A stretch of 64,000 nt of DNA from Planctomycetota bacterium (GTDB taxonomy: Bacteria; Planctomycetota; B15-G4; SIAN01): the NCBI GenBank assembly GCA_031409275.1, contig JANNXA010000012.1, forward strand, positions 1 to 64,000, given 5' to 3'. Made by a program: the position numbers and the translations under genes. Shown here piece after piece: positions 1-6,284 of this stretch (its first letter is position 1; each line of letters starts with the position of its first letter). The notes beneath the pieces were generated by a model that was not told the DNA's origin, made no database searches, and saw nothing but the letters and a program-made list of their open reading frames with translations.

Positions 1-252
1 GCCGCGATCGCAGATCCGCGACCTGTTCGCGCCTTACCGACCACGGGACCCTCGCTCGCTCTGCCATTGGGAAGTCTCCAGACGGAGACGATCGACCAGG
101 CTCGGCGACGAGGCAAGGCGGGGTTCACGTGACGCGTACGATTGATGCGAGCGATCGGGGCATGTCGGCGCGCTCCGGAGGTGGGACGAGAGGAACGGTA
201 GCCGGCGCGGAGGGTGGGGCGGTCACGGGGGCGTTACGGGTGGGGCGCGAGT

Positions 253-531
253 CCGGCACAAAGCGCAACTCCAACCCTCGGCGACGAGCATCCACGATCC
301 GCTGCAGCGTCGTGAGCGAGTGTTCGTCGTAGTTGGCGTCCGTGATCTTCGACATCACGCCAGGTGTCGTGATCACGCCCCGTGTCGTGCGTACGCGCGT
401 CGAGGGCGATCTCGGCGACGCGGTGTTGAGCCATCGGCTCTCCGATCGCGATGGGAAGGCACGGATCGTCCTCGACGATCTGAGCGAGGGGGAGTGTCCC
501 TCCTCACGCGTCGTCGCATGGTCAGGCTCAT
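253..531 (-). pseudogene. Degenerate XRE-family HTH antitoxin (HigA-like)
   Basis: Fragments in different minus-strand frames, QIVEDDPCLPIAIGEPMAQHRVAEIALDART and TTPGVMSKITDANYDEHSLTTLQRIVDARRRGLELRFVP, resemble the N- and C-parts of XRE antitoxins (...VA.LIYDART...SRLEDA.Y.GHSL..L.RIA.AL...L.LRFVP). The segment between them is missing and frameshifted, and there is an upstream in-frame stop. Confidence 0.55.
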
Positions 532-712
532 GCGGCCTGCGTAGCGGAGGGGAAGGAGTAGGGAGGCGCTTCGAGCTGACTCTGTCGAGCGAGTGCGTTT
601 GCTGCCAGCTCCAAGTCTGCGGGTAGAAGACAGCCGCGTGATCGGGATGAGCATGAAGAAGCTGTGCGGCGATGCTCGAGCCGGACGGTGGCTTTGGAGG
701 GGGACTCTGCCG

Positions 713-3700
713 ATGAACCGACCGGCGCCATCCCCATTCCTCGCGGTTCCGCACAGCGAGTGGATCGAGAGCAACGATCTCGCGTTCGCGATCTATGACC
801 GTTACCCGGTGACGCCCGGGCATTCGTTGGTCGTTCCGCACCGGCAGGTCGCGACATGGTGGGACGCGACGCGCGAGGAACAGCGGGCGATCTTCGAGCT
901 CGTCGATCTGGTCCGAACGCGGCTTCAGGTCGAGCGTGCGGCGAAGGCGTTCAACGTCGGCTTCAACGCTGGAGCGCTCGCGGGACAGACGGTCGCTCAC
1001 ACGCACGTGCATGTGATCCCGCGCTACGAAGGCGACGTGCCCGATCCGCGTGGTGGCATCCGCTGGGTGGTCCCCTCGAAGGCGAACTACCTCGTCGCGA
1101 GATCGCCGCACACAGCAAACTCCGTGCTGCTTTCCGGGGGCGATGATCGCTTGCTGCGGAAACTGCGCGGCCTTTTCGCCGATCGGCGCTTCGATCGCGT
1201 CGACCTCGTCGTGAGCTTCGTGATGAGGAGCGGCGTTGAGGCGCTCGCCGATGCATTCGAGTCGGCGCGCCAGCGAGGTGCACGGATTCGCGTCCTCACG
1301 ACGGACTACCTCGGCGTGACGGAAGTGGCGGCGCTCGCGCGCCTGCTCGATTGGAGCGAGGACGCTCCGGATCGGTTGGCGGTAAGGGTGTTCCAGAGCG
1401 GGGCGACGAGTTTTCATCCGAAGAGCTACGTCTTCTGGGGATCCCAAGACGGCGAGGCGCAGGGCATCGTCGGAAGCAGCAACCTCAGTCGATCGGGGTT
1501 GTCCGCTGGGATCGAGTGGAATCTCGTCGTTGACGCCGTCGACGACCTAGTACGTCAATTCGAGACGCTCTGGAGCGACGCGCGCTCCGTGCCGCTCACG
1601 CATGCCTGGCTCGACGGCTACCGCCCACGCTCCCGCGCCGCGATCGAGTCGCGCGAGTTCATGGTCGTCCGCGAGACGCTCGAGGAGGTTGTGCCTCATC
1701 TAGTCCAGCGCGAGGCGCTCGAAGCGCTCGAGCGCGCGCGGAGCCGAGGAACGCGCGCAGGGCTCGTCGTCATGGCGACCGGCCTTGGCAAGACCTTCGT
1801 CGCGGCGTTCGACTCGCGCCACTTCCAGCGTGTGCTCTTCGTCGCACATCGCGCCGAGATCTTGCGCCAAAGTCGGGATTCCTTCCGGCGCGTGCGTCCG
1901 GAAGCCGATCTTGGGCTGTTCAATGCCGAGGAGCGGATGCCCACGGCTGAGGTTGTCTTCGCGAGCGTCCAAACGCTCGTTCGCCGACTGGACGAGTTCG
2001 CGCCCGATGCATTCGATTACGTGGTGGTCGATGAATTCCACCACGCCGCCGCGGCGAGCTATCGTCGGATCATCGATCACTTCCAGCCCCGCTTTCTGCT
2101 TGGTCTCACGGCGACGCCCGAGCGGATGGACGGTCAGGCGTTGCTCGCGCTTTGTGGTGACGAGGACGCACCTCTCTTCGAGTGCAACCTGGTCGATGGC
2201 ATTCGCCGCGAACTCCTCTGCCCGTTCGAGTACTTCGGAGTGCACGACTCGGTCGACTTCTCTCCGATCCCTTGGCGGAACGGCAAGTTCGATTCCGACG
2301 CGTTGACGAAGGCCGTAGAGACGCGCGAGCGCGCCGACCATGCGCTGCGGGAGTGGCGAGCGCGCGCGCAGAAGCGGACGCTCGCGTTCTGCTGCACTGT
2401 CAGCCACGCCGACTTCATGGCACGCCACTTCATTAGCGCAGGGGTGCGCGCCGTAGCGGTCCACAGCGAGACGACGAGCGCGCCGCGCGCCGAGTCGATC
2501 GAGCGGCTCAAGGCCGGCGAGCTCGACGTCGTCTTTTCGGTCGACGTCTTCAACGAGGGGCTCGACGTTCCGAGCGTCGACACGATCCTGATGCTGCGTC
2601 CTTCGGAATCTCCGGTGGTGTTCCTCCAGCAGCTCGGCCGAGGGCTTCGTCGAGACCAGCCCGGCAAGGTCCTGCGCGTCGTCGACTTCATCGGAAACCA
2701 CCGTTCCTTCTTTCTGAAGCCGCGCACGTTGCTCAGTCTCGGCGCGACATCGATGCCGAGCGTGGCGGCCACGCTGAAGGCGATTGAGAGTGGAGAGTTC
2801 GGGCTTCCTCCGGGTTGCTCGGTCGACTACGAACTCGACCTCGTCGACGTGTTCCGTCGGCTCGTGCGGATGGGGGCCCACGACGAGCTCGAGGAATGGT
2901 GCCGCGAGCAGCTCGCGGAGACGGGCAGCCGGCCGTCGGCCGATCAAGCGTTTCACGCCAACTTCGATCCCGGAGCCATGCGTCGCAAGCAGAGTGCGGG
3001 GGGGCTGGTTCGACTTCCTAACGCAGATCGACCAACGTGGCGATGGGGACGAGGGCGGTCGGTTCTTGAGCCCGGTGGAGTCGGGTGCGCTTCAAGCGTG
3101 CGGCGATTTCCTCAGAGCGCTTGAAGTCGAGAGCCTGACGAAGAGCTTGAAGCTCGTCACTCTGAAGGCGCTGCTTGCCGACGGAACGCTGCTCTCCGGT
3201 GCTCCGATCCAGCAGATTGCGGCGACGGCGCGCGCGCTCGTCCGTCGCGATCGCCGGCTCCTCGCCGACGTGGCCTCGAACGGCGGTCCCGATGCGCGTT
3301 CGATCGACGACGACGCATGGATCAAGTACTGGCGGAAGAACCCGATTGCGGCGTGGACCGGTGAGGGGAGCAACAAAGCGCAGCTCTTCTTCCGACTCGA
3401 AGGGGAGCGCATGGTCCCGCGCTTCGTGGCGTCGGACGATTGCTCCGAAGCGCTCTGCGCGATGGTGTCGGAACTGGTCGAGTGGCGACTAGCGGCGTAT
3501 CTCAAGAACCGTCGTCCGTTGGCGCCTGGAGTGGTCCGTTGCAAGGTGAGCCACTCCAGCGGAAACCCGATCGTCCGCTTCCCCGATCGCGGCCGCGAGG
3601 CGCTGCCGTCTGGGACTGTGGAGTTCCGTGCGAATGGGAACACCTACGAAGGTGACTTCCAGAAGATCGCGCTGAACGTCGCGCACAAGAGCGGTGAGAT

Positions 3701-4715
3701 CGGCAACCTCCTTCACGCTCTGCTACGTGGCTGGTTCGGCCCGGTCGCCGGCCACTCCGGAACGAACCACGCCGTGTTGTTCGAGCTTGTCGATGGTCTT
3801 TGGACGATGCGCCCCGACGCAGAAGCCGTTCCATCGGCTTCGTCGGTAGGGATCATCGTCCCGCTCTTCCCGAACTACGCAGTTGCCTGCGGAGCGTTCG
3901 ACCATCCGCAGCCCGAGACGATCGCGACGAAACGAACGACGATCGTCCCGATCGTTGGTGCGCCAGCCCCGGACGCCGGCGATTTCCTCGTCTTCGCGCG
4001 TGGTGACTCGATGGACGGAGGTAGTGATCCAATCCGCCACGGCGACCCGTTAATGCTCCGCTGGGCGCGAGGCGTCGATCGGCGGCAGCTCGTCGGCCAA
4101 GTCGTGCTGGTTCGGCAGGGCGATGCACGCAATGCCCCGACCGCGCTGAAGCGACTCGGCGCAGACGGTCGCGGCGGCTTTCTCCTTCGCTCGGACAACG
4201 TCGCCGCGGGACTGGATCCGATCGAGCCCACGGCGGCGAACCGCATCGTGGCACTCCTGGTGCGCAAGCTCCGACAAGTCGAGTTCAATCCGCTCGCAAC
4301 GGAGATGCACCGCCAGTATCGGCGCGAGGACATCCCCTCGCTCTATGGAAGCACGTACAACCCTGGCAACTGGAACTCGGGCCACGTCTCCCTCGACGGT
4401 CACACGCTGTTGCTCGTAACGCTCGACAAGTCGGAAATGGCGCAGGGAGGCACGTATCACGATGAGTTCGTACACGGTGATCGTTTGATCTGGTCGAGCC
4501 AGAGCTCGACATCGCAGGAGAGCAAGCGCGGACGCGAGTTGCTCGACTGTCTCGATACCGGTCGCGAGATCCACTTGTGGGTGCGGCGGCGAAAAACCGA
4601 CGTCGTCTTTACCTACTGCGGACTCGCCGTCTCGATCGAGGCGACTGGAGACAAGCCGATCCGGATTACTTGGCGCCTTCTCGATTCGGCGCCGGCGATC
4701 CTCCTTGGCAAATGA
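713..4715 (+). CDS. HIT + PLD-family nuclease + SF2 (DExH) helicase + S24 peptidase-like + DUF3427/SRA-like protein, SauUSI-like type IV restriction enzyme; frameshifted at G7 tract 2998-3004
   Basis: SD GGAGGGG before ATG 713. HIT triad HTHVH; PLD HPK...GSSN; Walker A MATGLGKT, DEFHH, GLTATPER, QQLGRGLR. In the +1 frame after 3004: GGWFDFL, GDSM...LKRL (S24) and C-terminal YRREDIP...NWNSG...LVTLDK...WSSQS (DUF3427-like). Removing one G gives a single 1333-aa ORF. Confidence 0.8.
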
Positions 4716-4775
4716 TCAGCTGTCCGCGGAATAGCAATGTCGTGCGTTCGCGCTTCTTCCGGGACTGTTCGTCCC

Positions 4776-6284
4776 CTACCCCAACACCTCCCTCACCACC
4801 CTCGCCTCCTCGACTCCCGTCAACTTCGCGTCGAGGCCGCGGAACGGATAGGTGAGCCGCGCGTGGTCGATGCCGAGGCAGTGGAGGATCGTCGCGTGCA
4901 GGTCGCGGGCGGGGACGGGGTTGGCGATGACGTTGTAGGAGAAGTCGTCCGTCTCGCCGTACTCGATGCCGCTCTTCACACCGCCGCCGGCCATCCAGAC
5001 GGTGAAGCAGCGGCCGTGGTGGTCGCGGCCGGAGCTCGGGTCGTCGATCGCGCCCTGGCTGAAGACGGTGCGGCCGAACTCGGTGGCGAAGACGACCAGC
5101 GTGTCTTCGAGCATTCCGCGCGCTTTCAGGTCGTGCAGCAGCGCCGCGGTGGGTTGATCGGTGTCGTGGCACTGGTTGGGGAGCTGACGGCGGATCGCGA
5201 CATGTTGATCCCAGCCGCGGTGAAAGAGCTGCACGAAACGGACGCCGCGCTCGAGCAGCCGGCGTCCGAGCAGGCAGTTGGCGGCGTAGCTGCCGGGCTT
5301 GCGGACGTCGTCTCCATAGAGCGCGAGCGTGGCCGGCGACTCGTCGCTGGTGTCGGCAAGCTCGGGCACCGACGACTGCATGCGAAACGCCATCTCGTAA
5401 GCGTGCACGCGCGCGATCGTCTCCGGATCGCCGACCGCCGCCGCGTGCAGCGTGTTGAGTTCCGCCAGATCATCGAGCTGCGCACGCCGCTGCTCGCGCG
5501 AGACGCCGGCGGGGTCGGAGAGGTAGAGCACGGGATTGCCGCCCGGCCGCAGCCCTACGCCCTGGTGCGAGGAGGGCAGGAAACCGCTGCCCCACAGGCG
5601 CGAGAAGATCGGCTGGCCGGGGTTCTTGCCGGAGCCTTGTGACACCAGCACGGTGAACGCCGGCAGGTTGTCGCATTCGCTGCCCAACCCGTAGCTGACC
5701 CACGAGCCCATGCTGGCGTATCCCGGCAACTGGTTGCCGGTGTTCATGAAGGTGATCGCCGGGTCATGGTTGATCGCGTCGGTCTGCAGCGTCTTGATGA
5801 CGCAGAGCTCGTCGGCGACGTTCTGCAGGTGGGGCAGCAGGTTGCTGATCCAACGGCCGCTCTGTCCGCAGCGCTTGCCCGGCGCGATCGGCGGCACGAT
5901 CGGGAAGCTCGCCTGGCCCGACGTCATGCCGGTCACGCGCTGCGTTCCCTTCACCGACGGCGGCAGCTCCTGGCCCGCGAACTCCTGCAGCGCGGGCTTC
6001 GCGTCGAAGAGGTCGACGTGCGACAGGCCGCCCGATTGGAACAGGCAGATCACCCGTTTTGCGCGCGCCGGAAAGTGGGGCATCCCGGCGAGGCCGCGCG
6101 CCTGCCCATCGAACGCGGCGCCGGTCGCGGCGCCTGCCGCCGAGCTCCCGCCGAGCGCCGGACGCGCGCGCGCCAGCGACTCGAGCAGCAGCGAGCCGAG
6201 CGCGATGCGCCCGATGCCGCGCAGCCCCTCGCCCAGCAGTGCGCGGCGCGTCAGGTGGAGTTGTGCTTCGTCGCGTGGATCCAT
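4776..6284 (-). CDS. DUF1501 domain protein (alkaline phosphatase/sulfatase-like), Tat-like signal
   Basis: TRRALL N-terminus; AKRVICLFQSGGLSHVDLFD, GWDQH, ATEFGRT, GRDHH motifs typical of DUF1501. Confidence 0.9.
   Translation of the reverse strand: MDPRDEAQLHLTRRALLGEGLRGIGRIALGSLLLESLARARPALGGSSAAGAATGAAFDGQARGLAGMPHFPARAKRVICLFQSGGLSHVDLFDAKPALQEFAGQELPPSVKGTQRVTGMTSGQASFPIVPPIAPGKRCGQSGRWISNLLPHLQNVADELCVIKTLQTDAINHDPAITFMNTGNQLPGYASMGSWVSYGLGSECDNLPAFTVLVSQGSGKNPGQPIFSRLWGSGFLPSSHQGVGLRPGGNPVLYLSDPAGVSREQRRAQLDDLAELNTLHAAAVGDPETIARVHAYEMAFRMQSSVPELADTSDESPATLALYGDDVRKPGSYAANCLLGRRLLERGVRFVQLFHRGWDQHVAIRRQLPNQCHDTDQPTAALLHDLKARGMLEDTLVVFATEFGRTVFSQGAIDDPSSGRDHHGRCFTVWMAGGGVKSGIEYGETDDFSYNVIANPVPARDLHATILHCLGIDHARLTYPFRGLDAKLTGVEEARVVREVLG

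Follow-up and report, generated by a model that had tools for sequence, protein, structure and literature searches.

SauUSI, the closest described relative of the gene reported here, is a modification-dependent restriction enzyme. Its SRA domain is reported to bind 5-methylcytosine (5mC), which stimulates the ATPase and is followed by translocation of a dimer and shredding of the DNA (PMC7913695; bioRxiv 10.1101/2025.10.16.682607). A NUDIX gene of unexplained role accompanies at least 60 SauUSI-like genes (PMC3141236). How modification-dependent nucleases without a protective methyltransferase spare their host is poorly understood. Here we describe a SauUSI-type gene at positions 713–4715 of a 64,000-nucleotide stretch of Planctomycetota DNA (the window; contig JANNXA010000012.1, assembly GCA_031409275.1). 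The encoded chain has seven modules, in the order HIT, PLD, SF2, winged helix, B3-like barrel, S24 and SRA, and the copy in the window is interrupted by a frameshift. Because neither the catalytic dyad nor the scissile site of the S24 domain has been lost, self-cleavage rather than the HIT domain is the most testable new feature.

Predicted autoprotease domain and module order

Counts of conserved residues come from 88 homologues of 1270–1360 aa, out of 93 considered. Folds were assigned from AlphaFold models of the second half of the protein (pLDDT, for predicted local distance difference test, 92, and 94 for its first 257 residues), in which four domains are resolved; these were compared with known structures by VIA-align (Z scores) and Foldseek. 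All features of the gene lie on the plus strand.

A LexA/UmuD-type domain inside the chain had been proposed in a preliminary description of this DNA, and the fold comparison bears this out. The predicted S24 serine autoprotease (3849–4274) matches Pfam Peptidase_S24 at E 0.003, under the curated cut-off, and is supported by Z scores of 12.2 to the lambda CI cleavage-site fragment 2HNF, 12.0 to LexA (3K2Z) and 9.9 to UmuD. The alignment of model residues 281–424 with the structures of lambda CI and LexA extends over the cleavage-site arm. The dyad is kept (Ser at 4008–4010 in 88/88, Lys at 4149–4151 in 87/88), and an Ala-Cys-Gly sequence, the predicted scissile site (3885–3893; Ala in 88, Cys in 88 and Gly in 85 of the 88), lies 36–41 residues ahead of the catalytic Ser. 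These residues are near-invariant, whereas the mean column conservation of the domain is only 0.59. A divergent clade carries Ala-Ala-Gly (AAG) instead of Ala-Cys-Gly (ACG), and all eight genome-derived S24 copies inspected have one of the two together with the Ser and Lys. Cys-Gly is also the site in UmuD, where cleavage is reported to require Cys24-Gly25 with Ser60 and Lys97 (PMC5342242). We consider it very likely that the S24 domain cleaves itself. A predicted complex of host RecA (two copies) with S24 scored 0.00, which is no evidence either way.

The first half of the chain begins with a HIT nucleotide hydrolase domain (761–1030; Pfam HIT at residues 17–106, E 3e-19) of Fhit/Ap4A-phosphorylase-like type, with the motif GQTVAHTHVHVIP. 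It matches Ap4A phosphorylase and Fhit in the PDB at E 1e-13 to 3e-15, with the Hint-like 2EO4 scoring level with the Fhit and Rv2613c-type matches. The H-x-H-x-H triad (its His residues kept in 87, 87 and 88 of 88), an upstream His and a GQ motif are all present, and the PADLOC model for ThsC matches the domain at E 7e-8. The HKD-type PLD nuclease follows (1130–1612; Pfam PLDc_2 at residues 175–287, E 2e-9). Its H235-x-K237, which aligns with H119/K121 of the SauUSI structure 7CLG, its GSSN motif and the downstream E268 are conserved, with H, K, G, S, N and E each found in 88/88. The SF2 DExH ATPase motor (1694–2692; Pfam ResIII E 4e-37, Helicase_C E 6e-16; 7CLG E 1e-80) has Walker A at 1772–1795 and DEFH at 2030–2041; Walker A, DExH/Walker B and motifs III and VI are kept in 88/88. 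SauUSI (7CLG) was the top PDB match for both halves, and the best PADLOC models were mREase_IV (E 1.8e-106 and 2.1e-76 for the first half, 1.6e-6 for the second). The motifs HTHVH, HPK..GSSN, ATGLGKT and DEFH are all present in the N-terminal frame. A PLD-SF2-SRA core of SauUSI type had been proposed before and is supported by the mREase_IV and 7CLG matches.

The preliminary description counted five modules. All five are where it placed them, with their motifs, but it missed a winged helix and a B3-like barrel. The predicted winged helix (3072–3509; pLDDT 94) resembles Cdc6 (Z 8.9; Cdc6/ORC range 8.9–8.1) and the sulfur-binding domains (SBDs) of Hga (8.1), SprMcrA (7.8) and ScoMcrA (7.1). The predicted B3-like beta-barrel (3528–3818), a candidate DNA-binding domain, resembles R.NgoAVII (Z 7.5), FUS3 (7.3) and ARF1 (6.4), and Foldseek pairs it with VRN1/VAL1 (probability 0.87–0.90, E ~0.2). 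Both assignments rest on VIA-align, since Foldseek alone gave no match for this region at E ≤ 0.001; sequence searches with the region returned nothing meaningful in PDB or Pfam. For these modelled domains the Z scores are middling and name folds, not ligands. SBDs are described as recognizing sulfur through HK/HR and YP motifs (PMC7461809). These motifs are not kept here, where the positions matched by eye read YK/LK and WP/NP.

The chain ends in an SRA (DUF3427) domain, a predicted modified-base reader (4293–4685; Pfam E 2e-16, 7CLG phmmer E 5e-7; frame stop 4713–4715). An SRA-like C-terminus had been predicted in advance, and fold comparison gave Z 14.8 to SauUSI 7CLG, with a root-mean-square deviation of 2.2 Å over 130 residues, and Z 10.5 to SUVH5/6. 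The SauUSI pocket residues M829, Y831, F841, I842, D858 and W868 read S, H, L, V, D and W in this copy; D858 corresponds to D488 (D/E in 86/88) and W868 to W498 (88/88). Across the 88 homologues the six positions hold S66, H76/Y12, F64/L22, V74, D60/E26 and W88.

A search with the second half against proteins longer than 1000 aa gave 244 matches among 7989 candidates, of which 120 were listed. By profile classification, 90 of the 120 have the order HIT-core-winged helix-B3-S24-SRA (88 match the HIT motif pattern); 4 have the full form without HIT, 18 have HIT and SRA without S24, 6 have S24 without an SRA match and 2 are others. The matches listed include about 90 intact orthologues of 1270–1360 aa. 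Source names of homologues include Mycobacterium/Mycolicibacterium, Acidimicrobiia, Euzebya and Sorangium, and their database names already mention the HIT, HKD and helicase parts. Across the phylum, 54 of 401 genomes match at 1e-60, and 13 of these besides the present genome carry the long HIT-type form. The distribution is patchy (0/4 genomes of the same genus, 1/7 in the family). A plasmid collection held three partial matches, chiefly to the SRA region, none reaching 80% of the query.

The winged helix was found in 13/13 and B3 in 12/13 of the HIT-type loci scored, the one B3 miss being cut by a contig end (L020, scored in a wrong frame, omitted); the same profiles found HIT, winged helix, B3 and S24 in 0/13 plain, HIT-less SauUSI-like Planctomycetota genes. 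Because the winged helix and B3 both track the HIT-type loci and are absent from the plain genes, the clade is, judging from these profiles, defined by HIT plus winged helix-B3, and its tail can be exchanged: SRA with or without S24, S24 by itself, or S24 together with a different domain. Six proteins without S24 and with a decayed HIT domain (P0097, P0098, P0100, P0101, P0102 and P0112) form one clade (0.994) in a tree built by FastTree from the PLD-SF2 core; the clade is nested among S24-bearing members, which is suggestive of one joint loss of S24 with HIT decay. A variant of ~1420–1470 aa (P0106, P0107, P0111, P0118, P0120; L013, L014, L016, L017) has an S24 domain with an AAG site and then ~230 aa that match no Pfam family and include a conserved C-terminal RYLxGT..WIDTG motif. 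At L044 and L045, HIT-S24 members without DUF3427 adjoin a separate, plain SauUSI-like PLD-SF2-DUF3427 gene.

Predicted mode of action and alternatives

The explanation that we favor as a whole, tentatively and at somewhat less than an even chance, is a SauUSI-like modified-cytosine restriction enzyme in which self-cleavage triggered by RecA filaments (RecA*) switches restriction off. In intact members the SRA domain would bind modified cytosine, probably of the 5mC/5-hydroxymethylcytosine (5hmC) type by analogy with SauUSI; the SF2 motor would translocate and the dimeric PLD nuclease would cut. By analogy with other S24 proteins, RecA* is the likely trigger of cleavage between the Cys and Gly of the conserved Ala-Cys-Gly. 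Because this site lies between the motor and the SRA domain, self-cleavage would detach the reader, and restriction would be off during the cell's own DNA damage, possibly assisted by Clp degradation of the cut fragment, as with LexA. Such built-in restriction alleviation is the most economical reading because RecA on single-stranded DNA (RecA-ssDNA) is the established trigger of S24 proteins, Clp degrades LexA fragments and ClpXP shuts off type I enzymes. LexA cleavage reportedly exposes ClpX signals, and the new C-terminus may act as a degron. Degradation of LexA fragments by Clp proteases following self-cleavage is described in PMC11442139 and ClpXP-based alleviation of type I enzymes after DNA damage in PMC12707154. 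An internal LexA-type cut site would give the enzyme a self-contained switch; known restriction alleviation instead depends on an outside protease that acts on type I enzymes. We lean towards a net effect of cleavage that is off rather than on. The HIT domain most likely hydrolyzes a nucleotide, Fhit/Ap4A-like, in support of defense, which would match the role proposed for the SauUSI-linked NUDIX. Nucleotide clean-up is plausible because of the NUDIX linkage of SauUSI-like genes; that the substrates are modified nucleotides is a guess, and a doubtful one.

Several points weigh against this account. Restriction of modified DNA by family members is predicted from SauUSI rather than from the activity of any member. 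Trp242 stands where E126, the acid of the H-x-K-x4-E motif, lies in SauUSI, in a column less than 60% conserved in the family. ScoA3I, which has an altered residue in this motif, reportedly showed no activity in vitro or, in E. coli, against phages, though it restricted in Streptomyces (PMC6765204). Three of the pocket residues, M829, Y831 and F841, are replaced by S, H and L in this copy. The architecture counts are biased, the 88 homologues having been found with the S24-bearing half as query, and 19/120 listed homologues keep SRA and have no S24, so the S24 domain is optional. Some relatives (L015, L022, L023) end in S24 and have no SRA, and the winged helix and B3 would stay on the nuclease fragment; the cut must therefore serve more than shedding of the reader. 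No NUDIX gene was found in 56 flanking open reading frames (ORFs; within 1.5 kb) of 28 Planctomycetota loci, HIT-bearing or HIT-less; because NUDIX is found in neither group, replacement of NUDIX by HIT is unsupported by exclusion.

These points bear on the two rival accounts of the family. Self-cleavage might instead act as an activation switch that removes an inhibitory or specificity tail, as in the conversion of UmuD to UmuD', and frees a PLD-SF2 motor that the winged helix and B3 would guide; the result would be a broad nuclease causing abortive infection on phage-made RecA-ssDNA. Members that end in S24 fit such a switch, as do the two DNA-binding folds, which would remain on the nuclease fragment and track with HIT as counted above, and the Cys-Gly bond shared with UmuD. 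An S24 tail is also present on a DruE-like helicase of the host and on a Schlafen helicase beside the closest genome orthologue. We nonetheless consider activation rather unlikely, as reader binding stimulates the ATPase in SauUSI and a nuclease turned on at every SOS episode would be costly. S24 cleavage of lambda CI inactivates CI and leads to its degradation. LexA is likewise inactivated by S24 cleavage and then degraded (PMC11442139). What still lends activation some probability is that cleavage would leave the winged helix and B3 on the nuclease and that S24 occurs without SRA in some relatives. Distinctly unlikely, in our view, is a multi-reader enzyme whose main target (phosphorothioate, N6-methyladenine or plain sequence) is chosen by the winged helix or B3 instead of SRA and whose S24 domain serves mainly for dimerization or slow turnover, not as a RecA switch. 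Winged helices are described as reading N6-methyladenine or phosphorothioate in other type IV enzymes; the winged helix here resembles three SBDs (Z 7.1–8.1) and the barrel R.NgoAVII (Z 7.5), and family members freely exchange the C-terminal module. Yet the sulfur-recognition motifs are altered, the Z scores are middling, with Cdc6/ORC winged helices equally high, and a purely structural S24 domain would need no invariant scissile site and dyad.

Beyond the favored account of reader shedding, it is a tentative possibility, held with some reserve, that these proteins are restriction motors with their own SOS sensor. RecA-triggered cleavage would reprogram a three-reader nuclease (SRA, winged helix, B3) to an off or retargeted state, and a portable S24 tail would gate other defense helicases (DruE-like, Schlafen-like). 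If true, the recurrence of the S24 tail would be a general, undescribed link of DNA-damage signaling to post-translational control of bacterial immunity.

The interrupted frame of the present copy

The gene starts at ATG 713, with GGAGG 12 nt upstream, and is spread over two frames in the ORF list, 713–3124 and 3000–4715. No open frame encodes the 1333-aa protein previously described, which requires a +1 correction at a G7 run (2998–3004), where one extra G breaks the gene; the N-terminal frame (713–3124; HIT, PLD, SF2 and a short coupler) is out of frame past 2998, and uncorrected frame 0 ends at the stop at 3124. In tblastn with the three closest intact orthologues among the matches listed (71–75% identity to the first half, 60–64% to the second), the frame switches exactly at this run. 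Contigs of X1 (depth 16.5) and X2 (depth 19) span 2400–3600 with zero differences, and a 245-base contig of X4 (depth 2.9) crosses the G7 run with 0 gaps. These three runs are all from one study, X1 and X2 are possibly the source of the window DNA, and contigs conceal minority or rare alleles. The recurrence of this G7 in contigs from three runs makes a real lesion probable. We also considered the break as an assembly error, which is not supported, with the same G7 in 3/4 runs and the fourth (X3) having no coverage there.

The present copy is quite likely a recent pseudogene that would yield only a truncated HIT-PLD-SF2 protein. Its second half departs from near-invariant columns at 1/75 sites (homologue mean 1.2) and its first half at 8/223 (mean 2.7, maximum 14), none of them catalytic; so few departures fit a recent inactivation. 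A separately translated C-terminal protein is unlikely because no evident ribosome-binding site was seen by eye at the start codons of the second frame and the homologues are single-chain. For this copy only, the G7 run might be a reversible (phase-variable) slippage site or an assembly consensus, with a working full-length enzyme in part of the population. The run is the longest homopolymer within the gene, G/C runs of seven are uncommon in the genome (99 in 5.6 Mb), and neither half shows catalytic decay; in addition, rare variants are dropped from contigs, a single study is behind all runs, and a host C5 methyltransferase in a DISARM-like locus could favor turning off a 5mC reader. Such slippage is very unlikely all the same, given the identical G7 in three runs with no alternative contig across the site and the absence of a G run from the junction DNA of the two intact genome orthologues compared. 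Seven bases is also short for a contingency tract. Self-conflict with the host C5 methyltransferase might have caused the lesion, though this is no more than a possibility.

The GC content is 64–66% over positions 1–5000, compared to ~69–70% in most contigs of the genome. A sequence scan found neither a sigma-70 promoter-like site nor an excess of terminators, and there was no Rfam match in window 1–6000. The first 140 positions of the window are a repeat with identical copies at the ends of contigs C34, C43 and C7, and 40 bp of it also lie beside an integrase-core (transposase-like) ORF on C55; this repeat, closely upstream of the gene, is probably the end of an insertion sequence. The minus strand of 150–400 gave no Pfam match at 1e-4 and reads like what we take to be a decayed XRE/HigA-type antitoxin helix-turn-helix.

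Genomic setting and known systems

The genes downstream are of DUF1501/PSD1/PSCyt type. The preliminary description saw no methyltransferase there, and indeed none was found among six long ORFs scanned up to 17 kb downstream; the contig ends 712 bp upstream of the gene. Around 11 homologue loci, no DNA methyltransferase was found in the 66 ORFs scanned out of 126 candidates. The proposed link to defense gains support from clear defense neighbors at 6/11 wide homologue loci, including McrBC, DruE/DruF-like (Druantia-like) genes, HNH nucleases, Schlafen-S24 with MazG and a second SauUSI-like gene; the remaining five have a transposase, PIN toxin, integrase or nothing telling. Taken as a whole, the earlier interpretation is partly supported. 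The defense island that contains the closest genome orthologue (L001:9729-16180) also has two HNH genes, a MazG-like gene, a HIRAN gene and a Schlafen-group-3 helicase that carries an S24 tail.

The host genome encodes RecA and a LexA whose motifs are intact, and it has a match to the ClpX zinc finger. Its 1976-aa DruE-like helicase (L058:6523-12450, on G000:C4) ends in an S24 tail with an AAG site and Ser/Lys motifs; nitrilase-like and UvrD-like genes adjoin it. In the DISARM-like locus (L059:6854-14000, on G000:C55), DrmB and DrmC are accompanied by the C5 cytosine methyltransferase, which might generate self 5mC.

No description of HIT- or S24-fused SauUSI-like enzymes was found in the literature searched, outside of which lay subscription journals and supplementary tables that could list the architecture. 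The same architecture was not found in the parts consulted of PMC7159879, PMC11322646, bioRxiv 2022.05.11.491447, PMC12707154, PMC12839542, PMC10853773, PMC11037411 and PMC8565338. The fused HIT domain offers a handle on the unexplained link between SauUSI and a nucleotide hydrolase noted in 2011.

As described in PMC3141236 and PMC7913695 and seen in 7CLG, SauUSI shares with the present protein a single chain with PLD, SF2 DExH and C-terminal SRA in the same order; the pocket Asp and Trp are kept. SauUSI has no adjacent methyltransferase, and none was found in the downstream ORFs scanned here. SauUSI is linked to a NUDIX gene, whereas HIT is fused here. The present architecture departs from the four-domain SauUSI chain of ~950 aa (nuclease, ATPase, coupler and target recognition domain): it is ~380 aa longer through the added HIT, winged helix, B3-like barrel and S24, the H-x-K-x4-E acid and Tyr831/Phe841/Met829 are not kept, and this copy is frameshifted. 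ScoA3I (Sco2863, 945 aa) is a SauUSI homologue from a high-GC bacterium, and we infer from its length that the 945-position mREase_IV model, the top PADLOC match, is that of ScoA3I; in the part of PMC6765204 consulted, HIT or S24 is not mentioned for it.

The S24 domain is like LexA, lambda CI and UmuD in its fold, Ser-Lys dyad and small-residue-Gly site ahead of the Ser. It differs in lying inside a 1330-aa nuclease-motor, not behind a repressor helix-turn-helix or short arm, and its RecA dependence is predicted. PLD nuclease, SF2 motor and B3 also co-occur in NgoAVII/CglI, which is described in PMC7913695 as a two-subunit R2H2 system (PLD-B3 plus SF2), whereas the present protein combines them in one chain with SRA, winged helix, HIT and S24. 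ScoMcrA (SBD-SRA-HNH) likewise joins an SBD-type winged helix and SRA in one type IV enzyme, but it has another nuclease and no motor, and its sulfur-pocket motifs are not kept here. In type II Thoeris, a HIT protein, ThsC, is also attached to a defense system; there it is a separate gene in a signaling system, with a role that is only hypothesized (PMC8565338). In conclusion, the predicted mode of action is SauUSI-like and the architecture differs, and the intact autoprotease and the two added DNA-binding folds are conserved and testable.

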